Positions 3,039 to 37,002 of a stretch of 43,859 nucleotides of DNA are shown piece after piece (the stretch's first letter is position 1; each line of letters begins with the position of its first letter). Source of the DNA: a virus (Duplodnaviria > Heunggongvirae > Uroviricota > Caudoviricetes); IMG/VR virus record IMGVR_UViG_2908567220_000006, positions 1-43,859 of that record; one strand, given 5' to 3'. The translations under genes were made by a program, and so were the position numbers. The notes beneath the pieces were generated by a model that saw only the letters and a list, made by a program, of their open reading frames with translations, had not been told where the DNA came from and ran no database searches.

Positions 3039-3938
3039 TTACTTCATTCTGAAGACGCGTTGTGTCGTTGTTGTTTTGAATTTTTCGAATAACTCAGGGT
3101 GTACTGACTGGAATAGCTTCTGGTCGAATCTGTTGCTGATCTGAGATTTCCATGTGCAGAGCGGCTTTCCGTCCAGGGTCAGGACTGAGTGCTCTTGCAT
3201 GTACATCTTCAGCTTCTCTTCTGATATAGCTATTTCTTCTTCCAGTGATTTTCTGCGTGACTTCATGTCTCGTAGATCGTTGAATAGTGCGAGTGCCTTT
3301 CCGTCAGCCTCGATACTTGTCCCGGCATCTTTCTCAAACATCAGCGATATATCGCTTACGCTGGTAGCTTCCGGCGGGTTAAGATTTTTCACTCGGTCCC
3401 AGAAAGCGATTTCTTTTTCTAAGATTGCCTGGATAGTTTCTTCATCACGCTCAACCCGATAGATTCGGAAGTCGTCGCCACCGATAAGCACACCGAAAAC
3501 GCATACCTGTTTGTTTGTAACCATCAACCCGTGCATGGCCTGGGCCGTGTAATGCACAGGAATTGCATCTGTCTGGATTTCTCCCCATTCTTTGGCTTTG
3601 AACGGACTAACTGTTTTGATCTCAATGTTCTCGCCTGACGCTGCTTCTGCATCGATCTCAGCTGCAATAAAATCGTAATCACGGTGGATATAGCGGTTTC
3701 CGCGATGAACGATTTCCATCCCTGTTTCCTCAGAAAGCAGGTCTATTACGTATGGCTCCATACGCTGGCCACGCGTGAAAACTTTCTGCTTGCTTGGGTC
3801 TACTGGTTTGACACGTGGCTGTACCTTATCCAGATAAACCTCAAGCGGTGTGCGCCATGGGCTAATTCCAAGAATCCCTGCAACATCGCTTCCTCCGATG
3901 TATTTTGTTCTATCCATGATTCCAGCGTTCCGCATCAT
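3039..3938 (-). CDS. YqaJ-type viral recombinase exonuclease
   Basis: 299 aa; N-terminal motif KYIGGSDVAGILGISPWRTPLEVY typical of YqaJ/lambda-Exo-like nucleases; paired with RecT. Confidence 0.8.
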   Translation of the reverse strand: MMRNAGIMDRTKYIGGSDVAGILGISPWRTPLEVYLDKVQPRVKPVDPSKQKVFTRGQRMEPYVIDLLSEETGMEIVHRGNRYIHRDYDFIAAEIDAEAASGENIEIKTVSPFKAKEWGEIQTDAIPVHYTAQAMHGLMVTNKQVCVFGVLIGGDDFRIYRVERDEETIQAILEKEIAFWDRVKNLNPPEATSVSDISLMFEKDAGTSIEADGKALALFNDLRDMKSRRKSLEEEIAISEEKLKMYMQEHSVLTLDGKPLCTWKSQISNRFDQKLFQSVHPELFEKFKTTTTQRVFRMK

Positions 3939-4389: not shown

Positions 4390-4408
4390 AATTTGTTACC
4401 TCGGCTTG

Positions 4409-4485
4409 TTACCGTTGAGGTAATGATTATGCGTATTTGGTTTGGTGTCAATAGATATGAGTTAAAAAAATTACCCTTTAGGTAA
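4409..4485. promoter_or_regulatory. oL-like operator pair (TTACC-N5-GGTAA at 4409-4423 and 4471-4485) with leftward early promoter
   Basis: Two perfect copies of the 15-bp palindrome between the repressor gene 3' end and the first early-left gene. Confidence 0.55.
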
Positions 4486-4493
4486 TCAAACAG

Positions 4494-5127: not shown

Positions 5128-5182
5128 TTTCTGGAAAATCGCCTCATATCTGAATCAGAAGATGATTCAATTTAAAGCAATA

Positions 5183-5245
5183 TTACCCAACAGGTAAATG
5201 CACCTCATGGGTAACTATCCTTGATTTTTGTTACCTTATAGGTGA
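5183..5245. promoter_or_regulatory. oR-like operator cluster with divergent pRM-like and pR-like promoters
   Basis: Three palindrome copies in the 154-bp repressor-cro intergenic region: 5183-5197 perfect, 5200-5214 GCACC..GGTAA, 5231-5245 TTACC..GGTGA. Candidate pR: -35 TTGATT 5221-5226, -10 GAATAT 5244-5249. Confidence 0.6.
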
Positions 5246-5281
5246 ATATTTATTATCTGAAATAAATATCAGGCAATAGCT

Positions 5282-7477: not shown

Positions 7478-7514
7478 TACCAGCGCGATAGCGCATTTTT
7501 TTACGCCTCGACAA

Positions 7515-7591
7515 TTACCTGTTAGGTAATAAAATATTCTAAAATCTATTGATTTCGTGTCTTATGTGGTTTTTAATTACCTTAGAGGTAA
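7515..7591. promoter_or_regulatory. two palindrome copies (7515-7529, 7577-7591) upstream of nin-like operon
   Basis: Perfect TTACC-N5-GGTAA copies; the second overlaps the Shine-Dalgarno of the gene starting at 7595. Confidence 0.5.
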
Positions 7592-7594
7592 ATC

Positions 7595-12170: not shown

Positions 12171-12181
12171 GCATGGTACTA

Positions 12182-12214
12182 TTACCACAACGGTAACTAT
12201 TACCACGGTGGTTA
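12182..12214. promoter_or_regulatory. palindrome pair immediately upstream of small terminase start
   Basis: 12182-12196 perfect TTACCacaacGGTAA; 12200-12214 TTACCacggtGGTTA overlapping the SD. Confidence 0.5.
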
Positions 12215-14927: not shown

Positions 14928-15004
14928 TGGCGTGGCATGCAGGATTCGAACCTGCGACCAACCGCTTAGAAGGCGGTTGCTCTGTCCAGCTGAGCTAATG
15001 CCAC
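14928..15004 (-). tRNA. tRNA-Arg (anticodon UCU)
   Basis: Manual fold of the reverse complement: 7-bp acceptor stem GTGGCAT/ATGCCAC, D-arm GCTCAGCTGGACAGAGC, anticodon stem ACCGC/GCGGT with loop CTTCTAA, T-arm GCAGGTTCGAATCCTGC, discriminator G plus CCA. Acceptor stem differs from my recollection of host argU. Confidence 0.9.
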
Positions 15005-15326
15005 AACGCTGAGAGCACTTAGCCTGTTAAGGCGCCACACTTTGTCGCGGCTCCATAAATGCTCTCATCGTTGTGCCCTCGTCTCTTCCGAGGCGTCACA
15101 CCGAATCGCCGGGATGGTGAATCCCCGTGCGCGGAATAAAACCGCTCGACTTGCACATTCCGGCTACCTGGTTCGTTTGCCCGAGCAAGGGAGGGTGCCC
15201 CTTAAACGTATCCAGACCGCTATCGGCGCATGTGCCATACGCCGTACTGCTCAAAATAAAAGTTCACTCCACCTGTTCAATTTAACGACAAGCCAGTCAG
15301 GTTAATAACCGGAATGAACCCTTTGC

Positions 15327-15341
15327 TTACCTGAAAGGTAA
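15327..15341. promoter_or_regulatory. palindrome copy upstream of portal/head operon
   Basis: Perfect TTACCtgaaaGGTAA about 90 bp upstream of the first ORF of the head operon. Confidence 0.5.
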
Positions 15342-15431
15342 TAATTTGTGCGTTAAATGTCAACTGTCTACGATAAATAAATCATATGTGGTTAAATTGG
15401 TAATAATTTAATTGCGTACGGAGTCATTGAT

Positions 15432-18331: not shown

Positions 18332-19324
18332 ATGACAATGGCTGTTAAAGGCTTAACTGCGCTAACGCTGGCTGACTGGGGTAAGCGCGTCGATCCAAAC
18401 GGGAAAGTCGATAAGATTATCGAGCTTCTCAGTCAAACCAACCCAATCCTTCAGGATATGCCTTTTGTTGAAGGAAACCTTCCTACCGGACACCGAACCA
18501 CCATTCGTTCTGGTTTGCCTTCCGCTACCTGGCGTTTGCTGAACTATGGCGTACAACCGAGCAAATCAACAACGGTGCAGGTCACTGATTCCATTGGCAT
18601 GCTGGAAACCTATGCTGAAGTCGATAAGTCTCTGGCTGATCTGAACGGTAATACTGCCGAATTCCGCCTGTCTGAAGACCGAGCATTTATTGAAGCGATG
18701 AATCAGGCGATGGCGCAGACGCTGTTTTACGGTGATTCCAGCGTTAACCCTCAGCAGTTTATGGGACTGTCCTCCCGCTATTCCAGCCTGTCTGCGGGTA
18801 ATGCTCAGAACATCATTGATGCTGGTGGCACGGGTACAGATAACACTTCAATCTGGTTAGTGGTGTGGGGCGAAAACACCGTGCATGGCATCTTCCCGAA
18901 AGGGCAGAAGGCTGGCATCCAGATGGAAGATAAAGGCCAGGTGACACTGGAAGATGCTAATGGCGGCAAGTACGAAGGTTATCGTACCCATTATAAGTGG
19001 GACAACGGGCTGACATTGCGTGACTGGCGCTATGTTGTTCGCATTGCAAACATCGATGTCAGCAATCTTGACGCTCCTTCTACTGCTGCGAATATCGCAA
19101 AACTGATGATTCGTGCCCTTCATCGAATCCCAAATCGTGGGATGGGACGTCCTATTTTCTACATGAACAGAACCATTAACGAAGTGCTTGACCTGCAATC
19201 TCTGGAGAAGAGTTCTCTGGCGATCAGCGTGAAAGAGACAGAAGGCGAATGGTGGACAGAACTTCGTGGTGTGCCGATTCGCGAAACTGACGCACTTCTG
19301 GAAACAGAAGCCCGCGTGGTGTAA
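18332..19324 (+). CDS. major capsid protein (putative)
   Basis: 330 aa, immediately after the scaffold gene and followed by a strong stem-loop, as for T7 gene 10. Confidence 0.6.
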   Translation: MTMAVKGLTALTLADWGKRVDPNGKVDKIIELLSQTNPILQDMPFVEGNLPTGHRTTIRSGLPSATWRLLNYGVQPSKSTTVQVTDSIGMLETYAEVDKSLADLNGNTAEFRLSEDRAFIEAMNQAMAQTLFYGDSSVNPQQFMGLSSRYSSLSAGNAQNIIDAGGTGTDNTSIWLVVWGENTVHGIFPKGQKAGIQMEDKGQVTLEDANGGKYEGYRTHYKWDNGLTLRDWRYVVRIANIDVSNLDAPSTAANIAKLMIRALHRIPNRGMGRPIFYMNRTINEVLDLQSLEKSSLAISVKETEGEWWTELRGVPIRETDALLETEARVV

Positions 19325-19350
19325 CGCCTGTTATTAACCTGTGGGTCGTA

Positions 19351-19369
19351 ACAGACCCACTAATGGAGA
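19351..19369 (+). terminator. stem-loop after capsid gene
   Basis: GTGGGTC-GTAACA-GACCCAC perfect 7-bp stem; no T-run, so possibly a processing or attenuating structure. Confidence 0.4.
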
Positions 19370-19375
19370 AAGAAG

Positions 19376-19813
19376 ATGATCACCGACAAACTGTTGATGT
19401 TCTCCGAAGCTCAGGCGGTTACGAATACCGCGGCTTCTACTGACGTAATCGATCTCGGTCCAATTGACGGAAACCGTCGCGATATCGGTGTGGGTTACCC
19501 GCTTGAGTTTTGGGCGCTGGTTAACGAAGCCGCCACGGCAAGTGGTGAGGCAACTGTAAACATCCAGTTGCAGACGAGTGAGAATAACAGCTCATGGTCC
19601 ACTATTTATGATAGTGGCGCACTGGCAAAGGCCACCCTGACAGCAGGTAAGCGAGTTGTTTCTGCAAAGGTGCCAGCCGGTGTTCAGCGATATCTGCGTG
19701 TTAACTACTCCGTCGCAACTGGCCCACTAACGGCTGGCAAATTCACTGCGGGTATCAATCTTGATGTTGATGCCAATACGCCGTATCCGATCCGCTCAAA
19801 AGTAACTGGTTAA
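19376..19813 (+). CDS. hypothetical virion protein (possible capsid decoration)
   Basis: 145 aa, strong SD, beta-rich composition. Confidence 0.45.
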   Translation: MITDKLLMFSEAQAVTNTAASTDVIDLGPIDGNRRDIGVGYPLEFWALVNEAATASGEATVNIQLQTSENNSSWSTIYDSGALAKATLTAGKRVVSAKVPAGVQRYLRVNYSVATGPLTAGKFTAGINLDVDANTPYPIRSKVTG

Positions 19814-19814
19814 G

Positions 19815-20159
19815 GTGATATTGATGTCAGGTGAGAAACCAAGATACCGCGTTCTGCGCCTCTCTCATATCCATAACACTCTGTGGCCGGAGGGGGCAGA
19901 AATCGAATACGAAGGTGAGCCTGGTAGCGCACTGGAACCTGTTAACGATGCAGCCAGACAGGCAAAAGCAAAGGTAGCAGGAAAGGTGTCTATGGCAGCA
20001 ACCAGCACCAAAATCATCAACGATGTGTCAGATGATGGTGAACTGGATAAGCTCCGTGAAGAGTACGAATTGCTCTTTAACGAGAAGCCACACCATAACG
20101 CCAAAGCAGAAACGCTCCGCGAGAAGATCGCAGATAAGCGTAAAGAACTGGGCGTGTAA
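19815..20159 (+). CDS. hypothetical virion protein
   Basis: 114 aa; followed by an intrinsic terminator. Confidence 0.45.
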   Translation: MILMSGEKPRYRVLRLSHIHNTLWPEGAEIEYEGEPGSALEPVNDAARQAKAKVAGKVSMAATSTKIINDVSDDGELDKLREEYELLFNEKPHHNAKAETLREKIADKRKELGV

Positions 20160-20175
20160 GCCTCGCGGATGAGAC

Positions 20176-20197
20176 AAGGGGCTTCGGCCCCTTTATT
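20176..20197 (+). terminator. intrinsic terminator
   Basis: AAGGGGC-TTCG-GCCCCTT hairpin followed by TATTG. Confidence 0.55.
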
Positions 20198-20203
20198 GCA
20201 GGA

Positions 20204-20533
20204 GTGTATATGGAACTCGTAAACCTCAAAACCGGCACTGACAGCTACCAGGATGAGAGCGGAGAAACCAGAACTCGCGATGAATACCCGTGGGGGCTGT
20301 GCATCACGCTGAATAACGACACATTGAATAAGCTGAAGGCGCAACCTCAGGGCGTCGGAACAGAAGTGATGATAACTGCAAAGGCTGTTATTCGAGGCCT
20401 GTCTGCCAGAGAAACTGACGATGGCGTTAATCGCAGCGCCGATCTGCAGATCACTGATATGGCGATCGCTCCTGTTTCCGGGGATGTAGAAAAATCAGCG
20501 GCTGAAACTCTGTACGGTAACGGAGGTGAGTGA
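20204..20533 (+). CDS. hypothetical virion protein
   Basis: 109 aa. Confidence 0.45.
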   Translation: MYMELVNLKTGTDSYQDESGETRTRDEYPWGLCITLNNDTLNKLKAQPQGVGTEVMITAKAVIRGLSARETDDGVNRSADLQITDMAIAPVSGDVEKSAAETLYGNGGE

Positions 20534-21138
20534 TGGCCTCTGTAGTAGAGATCTGCAATCGTGCGCTGTCCAATATTGGCAACAGCCGCAGCATTAACAG
20601 CCTGACGGAAGCCAGCAAGGAAGCGGGGGAATGTTCGCTGCACTTTGAGGCCTGCCGTGATGCTGTGCTTTCTGATTTTGACTGGAACTTTGCTACCAAA
20701 CGCGTGGCGCTTGCAGATACGAGCAATCCACCGCCTGACTGGGAATATGCGTACCAGTACCCGTCAGATTGTCTGCGCATTACTGAAATTATGCTTCCTG
20801 GTGTACGCAATCCAACAGCATCAATGCGCGTTCAGTACGAAGTTGGTGCAGACACCAACGGAACAGGAAAGTTGATCTACACAGACCAGCCTCAGGCATG
20901 GCTCAAGTATGTATCTCGCGTTTCAGATGTGAACATGTTTGATGCCATTTTTATGGAGGCGTTGGCCTGGCGTCTTGCGGCAGCTATTAACATGGCGCTG
21001 ACTGGGAATGCAGACCTCGGTACGTTTGCCCTCAATATGTACAATCGCGTGATTCTTAGTGCTGGCTCGCATAGCCAGAATGAATCACAGGAACCACAGC
21101 CACCGGTTGATGAGTTTACCATTGCGAGGTTGTCCTGA
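20530..21138 (+). CDS. tail tubular protein A-like (T7 gp11 position)
   Basis: 202 aa; assignment by size and gene order, not by alignment. Confidence 0.45.
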   Translation: MMASVVEICNRALSNIGNSRSINSLTEASKEAGECSLHFEACRDAVLSDFDWNFATKRVALADTSNPPPDWEYAYQYPSDCLRITEIMLPGVRNPTASMRVQYEVGADTNGTGKLIYTDQPQAWLKYVSRVSDVNMFDAIFMEALAWRLAAAINMALTGNADLGTFALNMYNRVILSAGSHSQNESQEPQPPVDEFTIARLS

Positions 21139-23609
21139 TGGCTATCAGTTGGATCCAGCCCAGCTTTGCCGGTGGTGAGATTGGACCGTCGTTGTACGGG
21201 CGTATTGACATGGCGAAGTACCAGGTGGCATTGCGCAAGTGCGATAACTTTATCGTGCGGCAGTATGGCGGCGTTGAGAATCGACCTGGTACGCGTTTTG
21301 TCGGTGCCGCCAAATACCCAAATCGGAAATGCCGCCTGATACCGTTCCAGTTCTCGACGGTTCAGACTTATGCTCTGGAGTTCGGACACCAGTACATGCG
21401 CGTTATCAAAGATGGTGCGTTGGTGCTGAACAGCAGCAATGTTATTTATGAAATTGCCACGCCATATACTGAAGCCGATCTGTTCCGAATTAAATTCACG
21501 CAAAGCGCAGACGTGCTTACGCTTGTTCATCCGGCATACCCGCCGAAAGAGTTGCGTCGCTATGCGCATGACAACTGGCAACTGGTTGATGTGGTAACGA
21601 AGAACGGGCCATTTGAAGATATCAATATTGACGAGTCAGTGACGGTTTATGCCAGCGCCAGCACCGGGACAATTACGTTAACGGCAAGCGCCTCTATTTT
21701 TGGCGCGGAGCAGGTAGGCAAATTGTTCTATCTGGAACAGCCTGCAGTGGATTCAGTGCCGGTATGGGAAACCAGTAAGAGTACGTCGATTGGCGATATT
21801 CGCCGTGCAGACAGTAACTACTATCGCGCCGTTACAGCAGGCAAAACAGGCACTTTGCGCCCTTCGCATACAGAAGGCACATCATGGGATGGCTGGGGCG
21901 GATCCGGTGATGATGATACTGGCATTGAGTGGGAATATCTGCACAGTGGTTTTGGCATTGCCCGTATCACTGCTGCAAATGGAACTACTGCAACTGCTGA
22001 GGTGATTTCCTATATCCCTTCGCAGGTCGTTGGCGAGGATAATGCCAGCTATAAATGGGCTAAATATGCCTGGAACAGTGTTAACGGTTATCCTGGCACG
22101 GTTGTTTATTATCAACAACGTCTTTACTTCGCCGCATCGACAGCGTTCCCTCAGACTATCTGGGCCAGCCGTACTGGGGATTATAAGGATTTTGGCAAAA
22201 GCAATCCTACGCAGGATGACGACAGAATTATCTACACCTATGCCGGGCGTCAGGTTAATGAGATCCGCCACCTGATTGATGTCGGTTCGCTGGTGGCACT
22301 GACTTCCGGAGGTGAGTACGTCATCACCGGCGACCAGAATAAAGTGTTAACCCCATCATCATTTGCATTCAGCTCTCAGGGATCAAATGGCTCAAGCAAC
22401 GTCCCACCAATTGCCGTGGCGAATATTGCTCTGTTCGTCCAGGAGAAAGGCAGTGTTGTCCGTGATCTGGCCTACTCATTCGATGTTGACGGCTATCAGG
22501 GGAACGACCTGACCATCCTTGCCAATCATCTTTTTCAGAAGCACAGCATTGTTGACTGGTGCTTCTCTATTGTCCCTTACTCCAGCGCCTTCTGCATTCG
22601 TGATGACGGTAAATTACTGGTGATGACCTATTTGCGTGATCAGCAGGTTTTTGCATGGGCACCACAGTCCAGTACCGGAAAATATGAAAGCACATGCAGT
22701 ATCAGCGAAGGAAATGAAGATGCGGTGTATTTCGTCGTTAACCGAACCGTTAACGGGCAAACAGTGAGATACATCGAGCGACTGTCCAGCCGTTTATTTA
22801 CCAGCGATGAAGATGCTTTCTTTGTTGATTCTGGCCTTAGCTATGATGGAAGAAACACGTCTGACAGAACGATGACCATCACTGGTGGTTCTGGCGAATG
22901 GGATTACCGCGCGGAATATACAATCAGTGTTTCTGGTGGTGCGTACTTCACCAGTAGTGATGTTGGTGCGCAACTACAGTTCCCTTATACCGGAGCTGAT
23001 CCTAATACTGGCTATGAAGTGTCAAAAGAATTACGTTGCGACATTATTTCTGTAACCAGCAATACCGCAGTAGTGGTTCGTGCTAACAGGAACGTCCCGC
23101 CATCCCTCAGGAATGTGGCCACCACGAACTGGCAGATGGCGCGCCGGACATTTGGCGGCTTGTCTCATCTTGAAGGCCAGACCGTAAACATCCTCTCTGA
23201 TGCGAACGTGGAACCACAAAAAGTGGTTTCCGGAGGTGCCGTCACGCTGGAATCACCGGGGGCTGTTGTGCACATCGGCCTGCCAATAACTGCTGAATTC
23301 GAAACACTGGATATCAACATTAACGGACAGGAAACGCTGCTGGACAAAAAACAGGTGATCCCGTCCGTTACTCTGGTTGTGAATGCCAGTCGCGGCATCT
23401 GGGCGACTACGCCCGGCGGTAAATGGTACGAATATCCACAGCGTGAATTCGAGTTCTACGATGATCCTGTTGATGATGCTACCGGAAAAGTAGAAGTGAA
23501 ACTGGACAGTAACTGGGGCAAAAACGGGCGTGTAAAAATCCGTCAGCTTGACCCGTTGCCGCTGTCTGTTCTTGCCGTTATTCCTCGCCTTACTGTTGGG
23601 GGATTCTGA
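21138..23609 (+). CDS. tail tubular protein B-like (T7 gp12 position)
   Basis: 823 aa; assignment by size and gene order. Confidence 0.5.
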   Translation: MAISWIQPSFAGGEIGPSLYGRIDMAKYQVALRKCDNFIVRQYGGVENRPGTRFVGAAKYPNRKCRLIPFQFSTVQTYALEFGHQYMRVIKDGALVLNSSNVIYEIATPYTEADLFRIKFTQSADVLTLVHPAYPPKELRRYAHDNWQLVDVVTKNGPFEDINIDESVTVYASASTGTITLTASASIFGAEQVGKLFYLEQPAVDSVPVWETSKSTSIGDIRRADSNYYRAVTAGKTGTLRPSHTEGTSWDGWGGSGDDDTGIEWEYLHSGFGIARITAANGTTATAEVISYIPSQVVGEDNASYKWAKYAWNSVNGYPGTVVYYQQRLYFAASTAFPQTIWASRTGDYKDFGKSNPTQDDDRIIYTYAGRQVNEIRHLIDVGSLVALTSGGEYVITGDQNKVLTPSSFAFSSQGSNGSSNVPPIAVANIALFVQEKGSVVRDLAYSFDVDGYQGNDLTILANHLFQKHSIVDWCFSIVPYSSAFCIRDDGKLLVMTYLRDQQVFAWAPQSSTGKYESTCSISEGNEDAVYFVVNRTVNGQTVRYIERLSSRLFTSDEDAFFVDSGLSYDGRNTSDRTMTITGGSGEWDYRAEYTISVSGGAYFTSSDVGAQLQFPYTGADPNTGYEVSKELRCDIISVTSNTAVVVRANRNVPPSLRNVATTNWQMARRTFGGLSHLEGQTVNILSDANVEPQKVVSGGAVTLESPGAVVHIGLPITAEFETLDININGQETLLDKKQVIPSVTLVVNASRGIWATTPGGKWYEYPQREFEFYDDPVDDATGKVEVKLDSNWGKNGRVKIRQLDPLPLSVLAVIPRLTVGGF

Positions 23610-31911: not shown

Positions 31912-32424
31912 CTATGCAGGCTTTTTGGATTTGTACGAATAATCCCACGGATAAACATTTCTACTAAGTGGAGCTGTATTCGTTCGTTCATGAAATAATT
32001 TTGTGAAATTCAATACGGAATCCATCCAAACTTTTGCGTTAGCTTTGGTGTGTGCGGGCGGGTCCCAATAAGCTAGTAAGGCTGCATCTCTTATTTCATT
32101 GACTGCATATATGAGATATGCGTTACTGGTTGGTTTTGGCCTGTAATTTCCTTGTTCATCAATCAATCCATATGACCACTCATCCCAACACTGTTCAGTA
32201 CATGAGTATGAATATGATGCATATTCACCAATATTGACATGAACCTTTCTGAGATGGAAGCCTAATACTTCCTCTGGTCTTTCAAAAAGAGTATCTTTTC
32301 CCAGATCAGGATGATGACCATGACGCCAGTGTTGTTTAAAAGCATCTTTTAGCGAAATCAGAAAGTCATCAGTTTTAAACTCACCAGTAGGTATAACCTT
32401 CCCGCTATACTCACTCAAAAACAT
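31912..32424 (-). CDS. hypothetical protein B (170 aa), downstream gene of a two-gene accessory operon
   Basis: Start overlaps the upstream gene by 14 nt; AT-rich; motif region HWRHGHHPDLGKDTLF...GFHLRKVHVNI; no confident family assignment. Confidence 0.55.
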   Translation of the reverse strand: MFLSEYSGKVIPTGEFKTDDFLISLKDAFKQHWRHGHHPDLGKDTLFERPEEVLGFHLRKVHVNIGEYASYSYSCTEQCWDEWSYGLIDEQGNYRPKPTSNAYLIYAVNEIRDAALLAYWDPPAHTKANAKVWMDSVLNFTKLFHERTNTAPLSRNVYPWDYSYKSKKPA

Positions 32425-32737
32425 CGAATTCCTCTTCCTTCATATGCGTTTCTAATGAGTTAAGCTGGCGGAAAGATATCTCTTTTGATTCTGCAGATGA
32501 GAGTTTTTTTATCCGCTTTATATTCTTTGTGATAGGAATAGACATTGTATGCACATCAGCGGATGCTCTTGGCTTTGTGCTGATAAAAATATGGCGCAAT
32601 GCCGCATTTTCACTATTGAACGAGCCAATAGCTGATTTACGTGCTACAACCTTACCAGTAAAAATACGACTCTTGCTACGCTTTGCATGAGTTCCGCTTC
32701 TTACCGGACCTCTCATCACGAATCCAAGTTTTGTCAT
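32411..32737 (-). CDS. hypothetical protein A (108 aa), upstream gene of a two-gene accessory operon
   Basis: GGAG SD 7 nt before the ATG; basic N-terminus; candidate promoter (-35 TTGCAG, -10 TACTAT) abutting the palindrome at 32780-32794. Confidence 0.5.
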   Translation of the reverse strand: MTKLGFVMRGPVRSGTHAKRSKSRIFTGKVVARKSAIGSFNSENAALRHIFISTKPRASADVHTMSIPITKNIKRIKKLSSAESKEISFRQLNSLETHMKEEEFDVFE

Positions 32738-32779
32738 CTTTAATCTCCGGTAAGTTACAGGTATAAAATAAAAACAGGT

Positions 32780-32794
32780 TTACCTTTAAGGTAA
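32780..32794. promoter_or_regulatory. palindrome copy at promoter of two-gene accessory operon
   Basis: Perfect TTACCtttaaGGTAA 43 bp upstream of the 108-aa gene start. Confidence 0.5.
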
Positions 32795-32867
32795 TAGTAC
32801 GCTATTCACCCCCGGTCTGCAATCTGTACAGAATTATTTAAAGGCACGTCCCTGTGCCGCCGACCCG

Positions 32868-33560
32868 TCAGAAGAACCCTGCCTTGTCGTTGATGTACTC
32901 CGCGTGGGTCTGGATATCACGCAGGCATTTGCTCACACCGACGATGTAGCAGAACATGGTGGTCAGTTCCGCCGCCGCGCCCGATACATCGTGCCCGTCT
33001 TCCTGTAACTGGTTCAGCAGATTCATCAGCAGTGAGTTCTCCGTCAGGCCGAGAACACCAGACGGCGAGTGAATCAGGCTACGGTAGCCGGGCTTCAGCG
33101 GGGCGCTGTAGGTTTTGTTCTCTATCTTCATCGCCTGCATTACTGCTGACGCCGTGGCGTTGGCTACCTGGTCGGCAACCATCTTTATGCGTTCTTCCTG
33201 CGGGAGCGAGTTTTTAATGTAACTTCCGGTGCGGCGGATCTGAGGAAGAACCTCACCTGTAACCCATTCAAGAAATCTGAATGCTCTCGTTCCCTCAGTC
33301 ATTGCCTCTTTGCAACGCAGAATAAGGATGTAGAGACCTGATTCTGAAACGATGGATAGTTCTTGTATTCCACCAGGGGTCTGTATTGAATACAGCCCCT
33401 TTTTGTTCCAGCCTTTTTTATCAAGTTTTCTCGCTTGTGTAACATCAATATTCAAAGCATTGCACACATCTTTGGTGACAAACCAAGGTTCTCCGTCAAT
33501 CATGAACATACGGATCTGGCAGGATGACTCAAAGGAAAAGATGGAAGGTTTGGTATTCAT
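32868..33560 (-). CDS. antirepressor (Bro-N domain with C-terminal Ant/KilA-C-like domain)
   Basis: Start at MNTKPSIFSFESSCQIRMFMIDGEPWFVTKDVC (Bro-N signature) with AAAGGTGA SD. Confidence 0.7.
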   Translation of the reverse strand: MNTKPSIFSFESSCQIRMFMIDGEPWFVTKDVCNALNIDVTQARKLDKKGWNKKGLYSIQTPGGIQELSIVSESGLYILILRCKEAMTEGTRAFRFLEWVTGEVLPQIRRTGSYIKNSLPQEERIKMVADQVANATASAVMQAMKIENKTYSAPLKPGYRSLIHSPSGVLGLTENSLLMNLLNQLQEDGHDVSGAAAELTTMFCYIVGVSKCLRDIQTHAEYINDKAGFF

Positions 33561-33827
33561 GGCGATCACCTTTGTAGTTAGGTTAATCACCACCGCTGAG
33601 ACCAATCAGATGGTGGTGAACTGTGCAGAGTTGGTCTTACCGGCTACAAAGGAACCCGGCGCACCTTTCGGTGCCCCCACACAGCCCACCATAGAATAGG
33701 TGCGCTTTACACATAAAAAAACCGCTTATGCGGCATATGTGCCTCTGTAGTAATCCGGGAGACCAATCCCGGCACTGGATTTTGCCAGTGCCCGATTACT
33801 ATGGCACAAGAGGAGTGCGATGTAAAT

Positions 33828-33842
33828 TTACCGCAAAGGTAA
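33828..33842. promoter_or_regulatory. palindrome copy upstream of Bro-N antirepressor
   Basis: Perfect TTACCgcaaaGGTAA. Confidence 0.45.
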
Positions 33843-33873
33843 ATATAAGCACTCCATTTGGTAATTGCAAACC

Positions 33874-34131
33874 TTATCTGGTTTGTTTTCGTAATTGTTC
33901 GGCACAATAGTCGAGATGTGTTTGCAGATCCTGCATAGACATCTGTGAGCTGGTGACGTAGTTAATCAGTGCAGTCAGTTCGGCAAGTGGGCCATCGACA
34001 TTAAATCCATCCTTATCGAGATCCCGGAGTAATTTCATCAAGTGCGATCCCTCCACCAGTGACCTGACGCCTCCCGGCGTGTGAATCCTTTCGGTAAATC
34101 CGTCTTCCAGTGGATAGTGATACTGCTGCAT
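33874..34131 (-). CDS. small antirepressor-domain protein, paralog of the Ant C-terminal domain; putative SOS-inducible antirepressor
   Basis: Start at MQQYHYPL with GGAG SD; SHLMKLLRDLDKDGFNVDGPLAELTALINYV...DLQTHLDY aligns by eye with the Bro-N antirepressor C-terminus; a LexA box overlaps its promoter. Confidence 0.55.
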   Translation of the reverse strand: MQQYHYPLEDGFTERIHTPGGVRSLVEGSHLMKLLRDLDKDGFNVDGPLAELTALINYVTSSQMSMQDLQTHLDYCAEQLRKQTR

Positions 34132-34152
34132 CTTATCTTCTCCATGCAATAA

Positions 34153-34168
34153 CTGTATATTTATACAG
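34153..34168. promoter_or_regulatory. LexA (SOS) box
   Basis: CTGTATATTTATACAG: perfect CTGT-N8-ACAG with AT-only spacer, one base from CTGTATATATATACAG; 22 bp upstream of the small antirepressor-domain gene. Confidence 0.7.
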
Positions 34169-34207
34169 TATCAAATAATTTGTTTGCTATCCAGCACGTT
34201 TTGCCAA

Positions 34208-34222
34208 TCACCTGAAAGGTAA
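34208..34222. promoter_or_regulatory. near-perfect palindrome copy (TCACC-N5-GGTAA) in divergent region before tailspike
   Basis: One mismatch; lies between the LexA box and the tailspike promoter region. Confidence 0.4.
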
Positions 34223-34326
34223 TATCTATTCGTATTTACAGCCTTTCTATCCATATATGGTTTTTCAGGTAATAGAATAACCAGATATGCGGCGCAACGG
34301 GTGCTGCGACTATCTGGAGATTTAAC

Positions 34327-37002
34327 ATGACGGTCTCAACCGAAGTTGACCACAACGAATACACTGGCAATGGTGTTACGACGACATTCCCTTACAAATT
34401 TAGGATCTTCAAAAAATCAGATCTGGTAGTACAGGTTGTTGACATTAACGAGAATATAAACGTACTGGTTCTTGATACAGATTACATCGTCACCGGAGCA
34501 GGAGGGTACAGCGGCGGTAATGTAATTCTCTCGAAGGCGTTGGCTAACGGTCATCAGATATCTATATCACGAGAACTACCAGCTACTCAGGAAACGGATT
34601 TACGTAATCAGGGTAAGTTCTTCGCTGAGGTACATGAGGATGCGTTCGACAAGTTGACCATGCTTATCCAGCAGTGCTTCAGCTTTCTACGCCTGTCCCT
34701 GCGCAAGCCCTCTTTCATCGCGAACTATTACGATGCGCTCAACAACCGCATTCGTAACCTGCGTGACCCGTCACAGGCGCAGGACGCAGCCACGAAGAAT
34801 TATGTTGATGGGCAGATCGTTGACAATACCAATGCCTGGAAAGCTGGTGATGACATTCTTGATCAGAAAATTGATAGCAATTTCCGAAGAACAATTCGGG
34901 TTCCTGAAAGTGATGTTGATATGGTTCCTACTATAGCTGCAAGAAAAAACTCGCTATTTGGGTGGAACAGCTCCAGTCAACCTGTCCCGATATTTTCTAT
35001 GACGGAAACTGCTGACCTGGCTATTAAGCTAGCAAGCACTGAGATGGGATTGGGTGGCAACCTTGTTGGTATTTACGATGGACGACCGCCAGTTGTTGTT
35101 ACCAATACAGTAACAGATAAAATCAAGGATGGTGCAGCCGGCCTGCGTAAGGATTTCGGAGCTGTAGGTGACGGATACCACGACGATACCGCCGCTTTTA
35201 ATGACTGGTGGGAATGCCTCATGGACCTTCTCTATAAGCGCCGGGGTGTTGAGAGCGACGAAACTGCAGTGCCGTTTATGCTTCAGAAAGGGCCCAGACT
35301 TCATATCGAAAACGGCACATTTATTTATAACGGTCCCGGACTAAATATCACTGATACTGACGCATTTGTTTTTATCGCCGATGGTGAGAGTTCGCTCGCT
35401 ACAAAAATTTTGCTTCCGGATGGTGTTTACTTATTCGATTTTGATAAAAACCCGGTTCATGCGCACCTTGCCAATCTGACCATTCATGGTGGGCTTGGTG
35501 CAGTGCGTTATAAATCTAAACAGCGTTCAACTAACAGCATTCATCTTTTTGAAAATCTACGACTGTCTCGATATAAAGAATGCGGTATTAGTAATAATGC
35601 TATCGATATGCCGTATTTTCGTGTCAGTGGCTCAATGTTTTACGGGGACCCGACAAAACAAACCGTTGGTGTTTGCGTTTCAGGATATGCCGCCGGTGGT
35701 TTTATTCGTGATTCCGTTTTCAGTGATAACCGATACGGCATTAAGTTGGCTGTAGGGAAAAACAGCGTCGAGAGCAACGGCCCTGCAACTCCATACCTTA
35801 TTCAGTGCAATGATTTTTACCGTACTGGTAATCGCGGAGGCTCTGCATCATACGACATCTGGATTGAGCCGGGGGTAACCAGCAATAATGCCGGTCGCGG
35901 TATAAAACTGAGTCAAAACAAGTTCGGACAGGAGAACTTAAAATCTCCGGATACGCATATTTTGATTGCTGATGCCGCTGTATCCGGTAGTGGCTTAGGG
36001 CTAAATGGCGACAGGGCTCACGTTGAAACGCAGTCGGCAGGTTTTGTTTCTGGGGTGAGGTTTGACGGCAATGATGTTAACTCAAACAGCGCCGGGTATA
36101 TTGCGCCGTTTATCCGGACATTTACACCTAACGTGGGGAATTTCAGGTTTTCTGATTTGTACGACAACGATATGCCATCACGCATCATTGAGTTTGCAGG
36201 TGGTATTACTCAGTCACAAATAGGGAACCTGGGGCGTACAAATGTGTTTGACGCGTCTATGTGCCTGGCATTGCAGAAAGGTGTTGAACCTAAGCTGCTA
36301 TCCAACATGAATGACGTCTTCCGCCTGATTGATCCTCTGAATTATTACGTGGGGCACCCGCAGTCAACACTGGTTCCTGTTGGGGGCCAGCAGGATGATT
36401 TTGAATTACTTTACTCCGGTCCTACGTCTACTATCGGACTTAGTAACGCCAGCCGGTCATCGCTCAATAATTCATATGGGGGAATATTTGAAGCAGCTGA
36501 AATCACAATGAATACAGACGAAGGTCGCGCAGTTGCGTCTATAAGTGGTGGGCTGGCGGGGCGTAAACACTGGATTGATTTTGATATTCGTCGAGGCTCT
36601 TCAAATCCCGTAGGCTCTGTTGTGATGGAGGTCATGGACCCTACAGGGGTAACCATTCTGTTTCGTAGAATAATCCTGGTTGATACCATTACTCGATGGC
36701 AAAAAGTCGTTCTCCCGTACATTCCTAATGTAAACGGAGATATTATCGTCCGGTTCCGCTCAAATGTTTATGTGGCTGGATCAGCTACGAATTTTGTTAT
36801 TGGCAACCTCAATGTTTACCGAAACGAAACGCCAGTGAATACGGGGCATAATAGCGGTCTGCGTATGCAGTGGGATCTGCAACACGCAGTGAAAGGCGCA
36901 CGACATGAATGGTATGATAATGCAGGTAATCTGAGAGCTAAAAATGGTGCGCCGACGTCTGCCACCGATGGCGTAATTATCAGTGCAAACCCGGTAGTGT
37001 GA
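34327..37002 (+). CDS. tailspike protein (N-terminal particle-binding domain plus beta-helix-like enzymatic domain)
   Basis: 891 aa; N-terminus MTVSTEVDHNEYTGNGVTTTFPYKFRIF typical of podovirus tailspike/fibre adaptor domains; long Gly/Asn/Ser-rich beta-rich body. Confidence 0.75.
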   Translation: MTVSTEVDHNEYTGNGVTTTFPYKFRIFKKSDLVVQVVDINENINVLVLDTDYIVTGAGGYSGGNVILSKALANGHQISISRELPATQETDLRNQGKFFAEVHEDAFDKLTMLIQQCFSFLRLSLRKPSFIANYYDALNNRIRNLRDPSQAQDAATKNYVDGQIVDNTNAWKAGDDILDQKIDSNFRRTIRVPESDVDMVPTIAARKNSLFGWNSSSQPVPIFSMTETADLAIKLASTEMGLGGNLVGIYDGRPPVVVTNTVTDKIKDGAAGLRKDFGAVGDGYHDDTAAFNDWWECLMDLLYKRRGVESDETAVPFMLQKGPRLHIENGTFIYNGPGLNITDTDAFVFIADGESSLATKILLPDGVYLFDFDKNPVHAHLANLTIHGGLGAVRYKSKQRSTNSIHLFENLRLSRYKECGISNNAIDMPYFRVSGSMFYGDPTKQTVGVCVSGYAAGGFIRDSVFSDNRYGIKLAVGKNSVESNGPATPYLIQCNDFYRTGNRGGSASYDIWIEPGVTSNNAGRGIKLSQNKFGQENLKSPDTHILIADAAVSGSGLGLNGDRAHVETQSAGFVSGVRFDGNDVNSNSAGYIAPFIRTFTPNVGNFRFSDLYDNDMPSRIIEFAGGITQSQIGNLGRTNVFDASMCLALQKGVEPKLLSNMNDVFRLIDPLNYYVGHPQSTLVPVGGQQDDFELLYSGPTSTIGLSNASRSSLNNSYGGIFEAAEITMNTDEGRAVASISGGLAGRKHWIDFDIRRGSSNPVGSVVMEVMDPTGVTILFRRIILVDTITRWQKVVLPYIPNVNGDIIVRFRSNVYVAGSATNFVIGNLNVYRNETPVNTGHNSGLRMQWDLQHAVKGARHEWYDNAGNLRAKNGAPTSATDGVIISANPVV

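Follow-up and report, generated by a model that had tools for sequence, protein, structure and literature searches.

Known IsrK and C4 RNA families between two prophage antirepressor genes point to a P1-immI-type immunity module

Which RNA, if any, is encoded between the two antirepressor genes of this prophage, and how might it control the gene that follows? The question arises from the window, by which we mean the whole 43,859-nt stretch of caudoviricete DNA analysed here (IMG/VR record IMGVR_UViG_2908567220_000006). A sequence-only reading had described a highly structured leader between the two genes and suggested a small RNA within it, by analogy with the antisense Sar RNA of P22. The genes concerned and their related elements are the following.

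32868-33560, minus strand: ant, the regulated gene, encoding a 230-aa antirepressor; its ATG at 33560 is the same as in RefSeq
33874-34131, minus strand: upstream gene, whose 85-aa product is a small antirepressor homologous to SPC32H Ant (PDB 5D50_E, E = 4e-47)
34153-34168: LexA-box-like sequence CTGTATAAATATACAG, a pattern match 22 nt upstream of the 85-aa gene
5127-4543: 194-aa ORF, a homologue of the Rep repressor (PDB 5D50_A, E = 4e-42)

Both flanking genes do encode antirepressors, since each has a match in the Ant chain of SPC32H (PDB 5D50). In the 230-aa protein, this match covers the C-terminal residues 149-225 (5D50_E, E = 9e-14), while the N-terminus is a Pfam Bro-N domain (1.8e-13); the protein also matches PHROG 130, 'anti-repressor Ant' (3.5e-51). 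The 85-aa protein and the C-terminal part of the Bro-N Ant share 42% identity. A search of NCBIfam returned nothing for either antirepressor, and two Pfam matches below cut-off were rejected, namely DUF724 in the 85-aa protein and YafO in a 170-aa ORF (31912-32424). In the closely related phage ZX5, overexpression of the Bro-N antirepressor lowered the prophage titre about 1000-fold (PMC9782041). The window contains the hallmarks of the SPC32H Rep/Ant system: homologues of Rep and of the small Ant, and a LexA box before the small ant gene. The box occurs at the same distance in SPC32H and is also present in phiV10 and Tyrion. LexA control of the 85-aa Ant and operator binding by Rep are putative, being based on patterns, PDB chain names and a secondary source. 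The 85-aa gene is context and lies outside the RNA module.

The gap between the two genes is larger than had been supposed. Its right edge, 33873, stands, but the left edge at 33606, and with it the length of 268 bp, does not, because it followed from a TTG start at 33605 assumed for ant. Since ant starts at ATG 33560, which is the RefSeq start and is conserved in homologues, the intergenic region spans 33561-33873, or 313 bp. Two Rfam families match within it, both over the full length of the model and above the gathering score.

33791-33715, minus strand: isrK, a family of Hfq-binding small RNAs (RF01394), 74.7 bits (gathering score 50), model positions 1-77 of 77, E-value over the whole window 2.6e-14
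33696-33609, minus strand: C4 antisense RNA (RF01695), 78.6 bits (gathering score 45), model positions 1-87 of 87, E-value over the whole window 7e-14

The suspicion of a small RNA was thus well founded, as two small-RNA families tied to antirepressor control exceed their gathering scores. The RNAs of the gap belong to the already catalogued families IsrK and C4 and do not represent an unknown RNA. As for the term 'structured leader', the structure is real, but the region is not a mere 5' UTR, as discrete RNA genes lie inside it. At E <= 1, Rfam detected no family on either strand of the gap beyond C4, isrK and c4-a1b1. The match to the last of these (RF03163; 39.9 bits at 33804-33752) falls below its gathering score of 46.7, and its two hairpins are the same ones that occur inside the isrK match. 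IsrK here is the equivalent of the P1-type a1/b1 leader. The parts of the two RNAs that matter below are these.

33791-33772, minus strand: IsrK hairpin 1
33771-33756, minus strand: IsrK hairpin 2, with a1 in its loop
33766-33760, minus strand: a1, UUGGUCU, in the loop of IsrK hairpin 2
33750-33742, minus strand: b1, CUACAGAGG, in IsrK 3' of hairpin 2
33734-33714, minus strand: intrinsic terminator of IsrK, with its stem at 33734-33721 and U-run at 33720-33714
33652-33644, minus strand: b', CCUUUGUAG, in the loop of C4 hairpin 2
33637-33631, minus strand: a', AGACCAA, in the single-stranded junction of C4

The labels a' and b' follow the P1 record; APSE records use them the opposite way. IsrK consists of three hairpins, the last of which is a Rho-independent terminator; its minimum-energy fold coincides with the Rfam consensus (z = -2.82) and covariation is seen in hairpins 1 and 3. 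In C4, a closing stem of 17 bp encloses hairpin 1 (GGCACC-GAAA-GGUGC) and hairpin 2. The minus strand of the C4 segment folds into the consensus at -43.6 kcal/mol, which none of 200 shuffles equalled (z = -4.48), and the whole leader (33791-33540) likewise surpasses shuffled sequences (z = -4.76). All four structural elements that the sequence-only reading had pointed out were recovered within 1-2 nt of where it had placed them: a palindrome copy near 33828 (TAAATTTACC/GGTAAATATA, found at 33823-33847), a minus-strand terminator-like hairpin whose stem is followed by seven T, a hairpin with an 8-bp stem (GGCACTGG/CCAGTGCC at 33771-33778 and 33785-33792), and further inverted repeats, which correspond to the C4 closing stem and the two inner C4 hairpins.

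What links these RNAs to ant is a set of short sequences in its leader.

33605-33599, minus strand: a2, UUGGUCU, complementary to a' and separated by 3 nt from the 3' end that Rfam gives for C4
33594-33587, minus strand: GGUGGUGA, a conserved element between a2 and b2
33577-33569, minus strand: b2, CUACAAAGG, overlapping the ant Shine-Dalgarno sequence AAGGUGA, 8 nt before ATG 33560

The b' loop of C4 is complementary to b2 at 9/9 nt and also to b1 in IsrK, just as a' is complementary to both a1 and a2. The targets recur as direct repeats of 10 nt, which for a1 and a2 is exact and for b1 and b2 has one mismatch. Duplex energies of individual sites (-15.5 kcal/mol, with 11/500 shuffles as good, and -10.2 kcal/mol, with 32/500) are modest, weakly better than those of shuffled targets, and carry no weight as evidence. 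Cofolding of C4 with the ant leader or with IsrK (ddG 0 and -1.8 kcal/mol) was discarded as uninformative, since nested-structure folding cannot represent loop-loop contacts.

For a comparison across phages, we assembled 19 loci from unrelated temperate phages, including Uetakevirus, Stx phages, APSE, SfV and Moraxella Mcat4, of which 18 were left after redundancy removal. In all 19, isrK is followed by C4 on the strand of the downstream gene. Folding combined with covariation had been suggested as a check, and here the stems proved to be conserved: among the 18 loci, 97.5% of cells in intramolecular stems are paired and 22 of the 44 pairs show compensatory changes. In C4, double-sided changes affect 13 of the 27 pairs, distributed over three helices. 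The recognition sites are diverse, with 15 distinct loop (b') and 8 distinct junction (a') sequences in the 18 loci, and each loop and junction fits its own two targets better than non-self targets. For b' and b2, the mean match is 9.6 bp for self versus 6.2 bp for non-self, and in each of the four interactions the observed fit was reached by 0 of 10,000 permutations. Loop-target matches were scored by ungapped search and permutations because the whole-leader MAFFT alignment placed b1 and b2 out of register in several rows; alignment-based pair counts were restricted to reliable columns. In these columns, a1-a' is 99.2% paired and a'-a2 96.8% paired, with compensatory changes in 5 of 7 pairs in either case.

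The start of the module is marked by two further features.

33827-33843: core of an operator-like palindrome, TTTACC-GCAAA-GGTAAA, adjoining the -35 hexamer of the isrK promoter
33798-33826, minus strand: sigma-70-like isrK promoter, with -35 TTTACA (33826-33821), TGn, and -10 CATAGT (33803-33798)

The palindrome belongs to a family with 11 matches in the window at <=2 mismatches, compared with 1.24 expected, a number reached by no shuffle. Ten copies are perfect instances of TTACC-N5-GGTAA, and these are grouped around the Rep gene. In 8 of 8 Uetakevirus-type loci such a palindrome lies 36-50 nt upstream of isrK, and across related loci its half-sites are conserved while the 5-nt spacer varies. 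The putative operator at 33827-33843 is presumed to be a binding site of the prophage Rep repressor. The adjoining promoter has a 17-nt spacer and a 9/12 hexamer match together with the TG, and its sequence is kept in 7 related loci. The match to the Rfam isrK model starts 7 nt beyond the -10 hexamer, and transcription is predicted to start at about 33791.

Drawing on these family matches, folds, complementarities, co-variation, the position of b2 on the Shine-Dalgarno sequence and the identities of the flanking proteins, all computed here, we propose that the gap is probably an RNA immunity module of the P1-immI type, deciding whether or not the Bro-N antirepressor ant is translated; we put the probability of this reading at roughly 0.82. 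The course of events that we infer would run as follows. The sigma-70 promoter (33826-33798), adjoined by the putative Rep operator, would fire, and the majority of transcripts would end at the terminator (33734-33714), giving an IsrK RNA of ~77 nt with a1 exposed in the loop of a hairpin and b1 in the single strand that follows. Read-through RNA would extend into C4 (33696-33609) and ant, and C4 would presumably be excised from this precursor, as in P1. Its b' and a' would then pair with b2, on the ant Shine-Dalgarno sequence, and with a2; such pairing would block ribosome binding, so that Ant is not made and Rep remains active. Since IsrK bears the same two target sequences, it may compete for C4 as a decoy, and an excess of IsrK would lift the block. 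This last step would agree with Gifsy-1, where IsrK activates translation of anrP. Control of ant by an RNA is thus very probable, the RNA being a sense-strand, trans-pairing one of the C4 type.

The closest precedent is the immI region of P1. P1 C4 is excised by RNase P from a longer precursor and gives a stable RNA of ~77 nt. It is required for full ant repression (PMC8198154). The P1 immI record has the elements in the same order, with operator Oc4, to which the putative operator of the window would correspond, promoters, a1, b1, c4, a2, and b2 10 nt before the first ATG. As in the window, a1 sits in a hairpin loop with b1 just after it, a terminator-like hairpin is present, a2 follows C4 by 3 nt, and the regulated gene encodes an antirepressor of the main prophage repressor. 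The C4 fold is common to both (68.8 bits in P1, 78.6 bits here). The leaders differ in their family scores: the isrK model reaches 74.7 bits here, where the terminator is strong, and a sub-threshold 35.1 bits in P1, whereas c4-a1b1 reaches 51.0 bits in P1 and 39.9 in the window. P1 has icd, whose translation C4 targets directly, between c4 and ant (3471-3692 of the P1 record), but the window does not: no ORF, and hence no icd of the P1 type, occurs in the 48 nt between C4 and the ant ATG. In the window, b2 lies directly on the ant Shine-Dalgarno sequence, unlike in P1 with its icd, and P1 ant repression acts partly by transcription termination. Moreover, the Bro-N plus SPC32H-Ant-domain antirepressor is unrelated to P1 Ant1/2, and the repressor is an SPC32H-type Rep rather than C1. 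The recognition sequences also differ from those of P1, which implies a different immunity specificity.

Similar arrangements are found elsewhere. An IsrK-C4-antirepressor tandem is documented in P1, Gifsy-1 and APSE. In APSE phages of Hamiltonella, isrK and c4 are annotated in tandem directly upstream of a Bro-N gene, and the authors noted matches between the antisense regions and the sequence preceding that gene (PMC7313666); phage lineage, repressor and recognition sequences are different from those of the window. The P4 CI RNA (seqA, seqC) is a processed small RNA that pairs with sites both up- and downstream in its own transcript (PMC4825925), but it causes premature transcription termination of replication genes and not a translational block of an antirepressor.

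A different account has been published, on experimental grounds, for the homologous Salmonella locus. The Gifsy-1 region isrK-orf45(STnc1160)-anrP resembles the window in having IsrK with its own promoter and leaky terminator, a structured segment and an antirepressor gene (PMC4825925), and its stable RNA STnc1160, downstream of IsrK, holds the position of C4. Gifsy-1 further has a downstream effector with toxicity, AntQ. There, IsrK supplied in trans raises anrP translation 139-fold and mutations at G28/G31 and C159/C162 derepress anrP (PMC4825925). By our numbering, the pairs G28/C162 and G31/C159 map to a1/a'. The authors, relying among other things on stop- and start-codon mutants of orf45, explained their data by this upstream ORF and alternative folds and not by C4-type repression (PMC4825925). 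Applied to the window, IsrK in trans would open an inactive read-through fold and free the ribosome-binding site of an ORF beginning at AUG 33692 and coupled to ant. This is improbable for the window, and equally so is its corollary that C4 is mainly an mRNA segment and not a repressor RNA. The minimum-energy fold of the whole read-through RNA does pair IsrK a1/b1 with C4 a'/b' in cis, resembling 'structure A', and all 18 loci have an AUG at C4 positions 5-7. However, the ORF that it opens has 8, 15, 28, 31-37 or >63 codons in 20 loci, and in 6 of them it stops inside C4. In Gifsy-1 this ORF runs for 45 codons from the C4 AUG to anrP and was shown to matter, whereas in the window it has 28 codons, lacks an upstream Shine-Dalgarno sequence and ends 46 nt before the ant ATG, which makes classical translational coupling unlikely. 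The co-variation of b2 and a2 with C4 is also left unexplained. Furthermore, Gifsy-1 compensatory double mutants stayed non-silent (224 and 327 units versus 4; PMC4825925), as would be expected if a'-a2 pairing also matters. One Gifsy-1 result does speak against the P1-type module: with the cis a1 mutation G28A, basal translation of anrP rose from 4 to 93 units (PMC4825925), and a simple decoy model predicts otherwise.

Very improbable is ordinary punctuation, in which the gap would serve to terminate transcription of the 85-aa gene and to start that of ant from a repressor-controlled promoter, the other hairpins being incidental or translated. A terminator and an operator-linked promoter are indeed present, Pfam PF10554 matches the homologous region, and database annotators have called ORFs over it ('Ash family' or hypothetical). 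Nevertheless, the terminator lies downstream of the internal promoter, within the isrK model; the stems stay paired through 22 double-sided changes; and the three-way co-variation of short sites has neither a protein-coding nor a punctuation explanation. A protein reading of the 66-aa (minus), 60-aa and 115-aa (plus) ORFs, as well as of the 28-codon ORF in C4, was rejected because neither their length nor their frame is conserved.

The P22 analogy holds in one respect, as Sar too is a small RNA limiting antirepressor synthesis. The strand opposite ant encodes Sar, a cis-antisense transcript that overlaps the ant ribosome-binding site. RNA control of ant can thus be retained from the analogy but the cis-antisense mechanism cannot, since both RNAs of the window lie on the ant strand, upstream of ant, and pair in trans through short sites of 7-9 nt. 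That a plus-strand transcript within the gap blocks the ant leader by full-length antisense pairing is hardly credible: apart from the P22 precedent for antisense control, it can invoke the plus strand of the whole gap, which also beats shuffles (z = -4.59) as the complement of any structured RNA is expected to, but Rfam matched both families on the minus strand alone, the C4 segment scores z = -2.09 on the plus strand versus -4.48 on the minus strand, closing-stem G-U pairs in 10-17 of 18 loci would become A-C mismatches, the gap has a single terminator, which reads on the minus strand, and the sole plus-strand promoter-like site in 32500-34600, a region where the count of such sites is not above shuffles, lies inside ant (33475-33503, towards the gap, 9/12).

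Within the P1-immI-type reading, the element GGUGGUGA deserves separate consideration. It is the complement of UCACCACC (33619-33612), which forms the 3' side of the closing stem in C4, and this interaction is 96.5% paired across the 18 loci, with 2 compensatory pairs. In the isolated leader, GGUGGUGA is also predicted to pair with the stretch from the ant Shine-Dalgarno sequence to the AUG. Since the Shine-Dalgarno sequence is already buried in a hairpin in this predicted fold, C4 may act on a structure and not on an open site. It is conceivable, though on the whole doubtful, that the two pairings of GGUGGUGA are part of a three-state switch. In the unprocessed read-through RNA, GGUGGUGA would pair with C4 while IsrK a1/b1 hold C4 a'/b' in cis; the folding and processing state of C4 would thereby be coupled in cis to ant translation, with IsrK as the anti-antisense key. 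If this were true, the P1 account (repressor RNA) and the Gifsy-1 account (activator RNA) would be reconciled. The product of the RNA-gated ant would also share its Rep-binding domain with the small, SOS-controlled Ant upstream, and two independent induction inputs would converge on one repressor.

Two known RNA families combined with pairing to the ribosome-binding site of an antirepressor indicate a control module already known from prophages, present here as an ordinary copy. The module of the window is a further instance of the P1 mechanism, revisited in Gifsy-1 in 2016, and is not new; that mechanism was reportedly worked out in P1 in 1990. The practical value of the finding is in annotation. 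The leader is present in 467 of 5426 complete E. coli genomes, and the two RNAs are absent from the annotation of phiV10, ZX5 and RefSeq E. coli records; elsewhere, records label homologous regions as protein, under the names 'Ash family', 'immunity region' or 'transcriptional regulator'. The ZX5 antirepressor study likewise makes no mention of IsrK or C4 RNAs (PMC9782041). For phiV10-like E. coli prophages, including O157 typing phages, the module predicts an RNA-based secondary immunity that would be added to the SOS/LexA-controlled Ant route. Its specificity would be exchangeable; between the window and phiV10, both recognition sites differ.

The gap between the 85-aa small antirepressor ORF and the Bro-N antirepressor gene ant is filled by members of two RNA families. 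An Rfam scan of the whole window gave three matches over the curated thresholds, two of them in this gap, in the following layout:

34327, plus strand: start of a divergent tailspike-like gene
34131–33874, minus strand: 85-aa ORF
33791–33715, minus strand: isrK (RF01394), full-length, 74.7 bits (gathering score 50)
33696–33609, minus strand: C4 antisense RNA (RF01695), full-length, 78.6 bits (gathering score 45)
33560 (ATG) to 32868, minus strand: ant, encoding a 230-aa Bro-N protein

The sole addition in a permissive scan was c4-a1b1 (RF03163, "a1, b1 targets of C4 antisense RNA"), which at 39.9 bits lies slightly under its cut-off and overlaps IsrK hairpins 1 and 2. The minimum-energy folds of both segments reproduce the Rfam consensus structures. 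The families to which the gap element belongs are known and curated, and its architecture is already documented in P1, Gifsy-1 and APSE (PMC7313666).

The structural features that the sequence-only reading had pointed out are all present: a palindrome (33823–33847), a minus-strand terminator (stem 33734–33721, then seven T at 33720–33714), an 8-bp hairpin (33771–33792) and further inverted repeats. Two of these belong to IsrK, as its hairpin 1 (the 8-bp hairpin) and its terminator; C4 supplies the further inverted repeats, namely its closing stem and the two hairpins inside it. Structure in the gap is above chance expectation, with −43.6 kcal/mol for the 88-nt minus-strand segment (z = −4.48, 0 of 200 shuffles as good), −26.4 kcal/mol for the 77-nt minus-strand segment (z = −2.82) and −100.5 kcal/mol for the 252-nt leader (z = −4.76). 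The left edge that this reading gave the gap, 33606, rested on TTG 33605. Since the real start of ant is ATG 33560, which has a Shine-Dalgarno AAGGTGA 7–8 nt upstream, is the RefSeq start and opens an N-terminus (MNTKPS) conserved in relatives, the gap is 33561–33873. Small RNAs very probably do control the antirepressor, as had been proposed, but the suggested model, the antisense Sar RNA of P22, is wrong.

C4 carries two recognition segments, a' and b', with targets in IsrK (a1, b1) and downstream of C4 (a2, b2). With labels following the P1 record, the sites read along the minus strand are:

33766–33760: a1 UUGGUCU, IsrK, hairpin 2 loop
33750–33742: b1 CUACAGAGG, IsrK, linker ahead of the terminator
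33652–33644: b' CCUUUGUAG, C4, loop of hairpin 2
33637–33631: a' AGACCAA, C4, single-stranded junction after hairpin 2
33605–33599: a2 UUGGUCU, downstream of C4
33577–33569: b2 CUACAAAGG, overlapping the ant Shine-Dalgarno, 8 nt before the ATG

A repeat finder independently placed a1 and a2 within an exact 10-nt direct repeat (D5) and b1 and b2 within a 10-nt direct repeat with one mismatch (D6). It also returned b'/b2 (I11) and a'/a1 (I21) as perfect inverted repeats, and the perfect 7-nt a'/a2 match as part of a longer, imperfect inverted repeat of 13 nt (I5, 85% complementary).

We compared 19 loci from the phage collection, picked to span the ranking and including phiV10, TL-2011b, EC.W1-9, Klebsiella and Enterobacter Uetakeviruses, Hafnia yong2, APSE-2, APSE-7, Moraxella Mcat4, several Stx phages, SfV and Salmonella 118970_sal3. 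In all 19, isrK comes first and C4 begins after a further 18–26 nt, both on the same strand as the gene downstream. The sequence-only reading had made its proposal depend on conservation of the stems, and they are conserved: in an 18-sequence alignment, pairing is kept at 97.5% over the 44 pairs of IsrK and C4, 22 of which have two-sided changes, a result reached by 0 of 500 column shuffles, and slid controls are 37–45% paired. The inter-site pairings a1–a' (99.2% paired) and a'–a2 (96.8%) each have compensatory changes at 5 of 7 pairs. No reliable alignment was possible for the C4 loop and its targets, so these were scored directly. The loop takes 15 distinct sequences in 18 loci. It forms a mean of 8.8 bp with its own b1 (5.2 bp with non-self) and 9.6 bp with its own b2 (6.2 bp with non-self). 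In each of the four interactions, the observed total was reached by 0 of 10,000 permutations that reassigned the targets. The Shine-Dalgarno-proximal site ends about 6–11 nt ahead of the downstream ATG (17 of 18 loci where resolved). Both recognition segments differ between the window (b' CCUUUGUAG, a' AGACCAA) and phiV10 (CCUUUUAG, ACGCCAA). Such three-way co-variation is the signature of functional RNA–RNA recognition whose specificity is exchangeable.

Apart from lacking icd, the window locus is collinear with the immI region of P1. There the record begins with operator Oc4, which overlaps the −35 of one c4 promoter, and continues with another promoter, a1, b1, the 77-nt c4, a2 3 nt after it, b2 10 nt before icd, and ant1/ant2. 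In the P1 sequence, a1 and a2 (TTGACAG) complement the junction CUGUCAA, and b1 and b2 (GTTAGTG.) complement the hairpin loop UCACUAAC. P1 scores 68.8 bits for C4, and its leader 51.0 bits for c4-a1b1. The isrK model also matches this leader (35.1 bits), including a terminator-like hairpin and U-run; IsrK is therefore the strong-terminator form of the P1 a1/b1 leader.

On the mechanism proposed for the window, transcription would start near 33791 and in the majority of cases stop at the terminator, yielding IsrK, while read-through would produce C4 and the ant message. Pairing of a' and b' with a2 and b2 would occlude the ant ribosome-binding site, and IsrK, carrying a1 and b1, would compete for C4, so that the block could be relieved. 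The family matches, folds, co-varying complementarities and position of b2 on the Shine-Dalgarno are direct observations; expression, processing and direction of effect we infer from P1 (PMC8198154) and Gifsy-1. In the homologous Gifsy-1 locus, isrK-orf45-anrP, the read-through mRNA is silent in translation, short IsrK in trans raises anrP translation 139-fold, and a stable RNA, STnc1160, is processed out of the segment following IsrK (PMC4825925).

The authors of that study proposed that orf45 translation is coupled to anrP, noting an analogy to P4 CI/seqA/seqC (PMC4825925). Judging from their numbering and our alignment, the first AUG of orf45 (+107) would be the invariant AUG at C4 positions 5–7, and their compensatory pairs G28/C162 and G31/C159 would lie in a1 (UUGGCGU) and a' (ACGCCAA). 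Coupling of an ORF within C4 to ant is a minor alternative here, because the window ORF from this AUG is 28 codons long, has no Shine-Dalgarno and ends 46 nt ahead of ant, and its length ranges from 8 to more than 63 codons in 20 loci. The Gifsy-1 a' mutants are strongly derepressed (484 and 926 units versus 4) and the double mutants are still high (224 and 327 units; PMC4825925), as a C4-type block via a2 predicts. A simple decoy model does not explain the rise of a1 mutants in cis to 93 and 218 units (PMC4825925).

Between a2 and b2 lies an additional conserved element, GGUGGUGA (33594–33587), which has the form GGUGG(U/C)G and is invariant across the 18 loci. One possible partner is the 3′ strand of the C4 closing stem (96.5% conserved, 2 compensatory pairs). 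In the predicted fold of the isolated leader it pairs instead with the Shine-Dalgarno-to-AUG stretch, leaving b2 in a loop, a complementarity seen in the Uetakevirus/APSE/P27 group; when the entire read-through RNA is folded, IsrK and C4 are predicted to pair in cis and GGUGGUGA to join the C4 3′ strand. These modeled alternatives suggest a conformational switch, and the element could serve either as such or in C4 3′-end processing.

The flanking proteins are members of the SPC32H (Salmonella phage) Rep/Ant system, in which a Rep tetramer binds palindromic sites and is disassembled by Ant (PMC9638917). Three proteins have matches in PDB 5D50: the 85-aa ORF to its "Anti-repressor protein" chain (E = 4e-47), a 194-aa ORF (5127–4543) to its "Repressor" chain 5D50_A (E = 4e-42), and residues 149–225 of the Bro-N protein to the Ant chain (E = 9e-14). 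Those residues are also 42% identical to the 85-aa protein. The window contains 10 perfect TTACC-N5-GGTAA palindromes, and 15 at up to one mismatch versus 1.3 expected:

4408–4424, 4470–4486, 5182–5198, 5230–5246, 7514–7530, 7576–7592, 12181–12197, 15326–15342, 32779–32795, 33827–33843, 35816–35832: palindrome family
34208–34222: one-mismatch copy

They are probably Rep operators. Pairs lie on both sides of the Rep gene (4408/4470 and 5182/5230), one copy is upstream of a 108-aa ORF after ant, and one is in the small-ant/tailspike intergenic region. The gap copy adjoins the −35 hexamer of a promoter, TTTACA-17-TGnCATAGT, whose −10 ends 7 nt ahead of the IsrK 5′ end; a palindrome is at this position in 8 of 8 Uetakevirus-type loci, and all loci of the Stx, APSE and SfV phages lack it there. 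By analogy with C1 at Oc4 in P1, Rep would repress the isrK promoter. The copy at 32779–32795 precedes 108-aa and 170-aa ORFs directly downstream of ant (31912–32737, minus strand), the latter with a weak, sub-threshold YafO-toxin match (20.1 bits, cut-off 25); this could be a Rep-controlled toxin-like pair.

A LexA-box-like sequence, CTGTATAAATATACAG (34153–34168), lies 22 nt upstream of the 85-aa gene and in its 20-nt context agrees with TACTGTATATATATACAGTA at 18 of 20 positions by our count. SPC32H has a CTGT-N8-ACAG box at the same distance, and phiV10 and Tyrion also have one. As no terminator is predicted from the 85-aa gene to isrK, SOS-driven transcription may run into the RNA module.

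The window is a phiV10/epsilon15-like (Uetakevirus) E. coli prophage, which also contains a tRNA gene (14931–15004, minus strand; Rfam tRNA, 71.7 bits). By DNA comparison, 33500–34330 is 90–97% identical to phages Phi05_1387 B, vB_EcoP_ZX5 and phiV10, and the leader is 98.4% identical to that of EC.W1-9. Similarity to phiV10, ZX5 and other relatives starts at 33557, at the ant start codon (33560–33558); the isrK-C4 leader is common to these phages, but most of them have a different ant coding sequence. With EC.W1-9 the leader is shared, as are the 16 nt of ant that the query covered, but the small ant upstream is not shared at that place. The joint at 33557–33560 looks like a recombination boundary closing a regulatory cassette. 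SPC32H (18476–21291) has a small LexA-boxed ant beside the tailspike gene and lacks the isrK-C4-Bro-N cassette, and the DNA match to epsilon15 and SPN1S is limited to the small-ant part. Given its absence from SPC32H, the isrK-C4-ant cassette is an addition in phiV10-like phages; within the genus, the members from E. coli, Klebsiella and Enterobacter appear to carry it as an accessory insertion. Stx2a phage Stx2_EH0787 has an sRNA-Xcc1 match (positions 283–366 of its locus, 75.7 bits) about 560 nt downstream of isrK-C4; as sRNA-Xcc1 is also reported in some APSE phages (PMC7313666), these small RNAs may travel together.

Both RNAs are unannotated in the phiV10, ZX5 and RefSeq records. In the gap, the phiV10 record has only "terminator" and "similar to hypothetical protein SF0880", and locus tags of the E. 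coli AR_0085 RefSeq record skip from RS04100 to RS04090. Pfam PF10554 (Phage_ASH, "Ash protein family") falls exactly on the isrK, C4 and leader segment, which sits in long annotated ORFs in SfV (orf37, "immunity region"), Hafnia yong2 ("Ash family protein") and Salmonella 118970_sal3 ("transcriptional regulator"):

L015 818–1099, L009 838–1119, L018 815–1099 (minus strand): PF10554 matches

The 28-codon ORF in C4 of the window (33692–33607) matches PF10554 profile positions 49–75, and several PHROG "transcriptional regulator" families match it too. PF10554 and these PHROG families appear to include translated non-coding RNA. The leader is 100% identical in several E. coli chromosomes and found in 467 of 5426 complete genomes. 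The module is common in E. coli, and the value of its recognition lies mostly in annotation.
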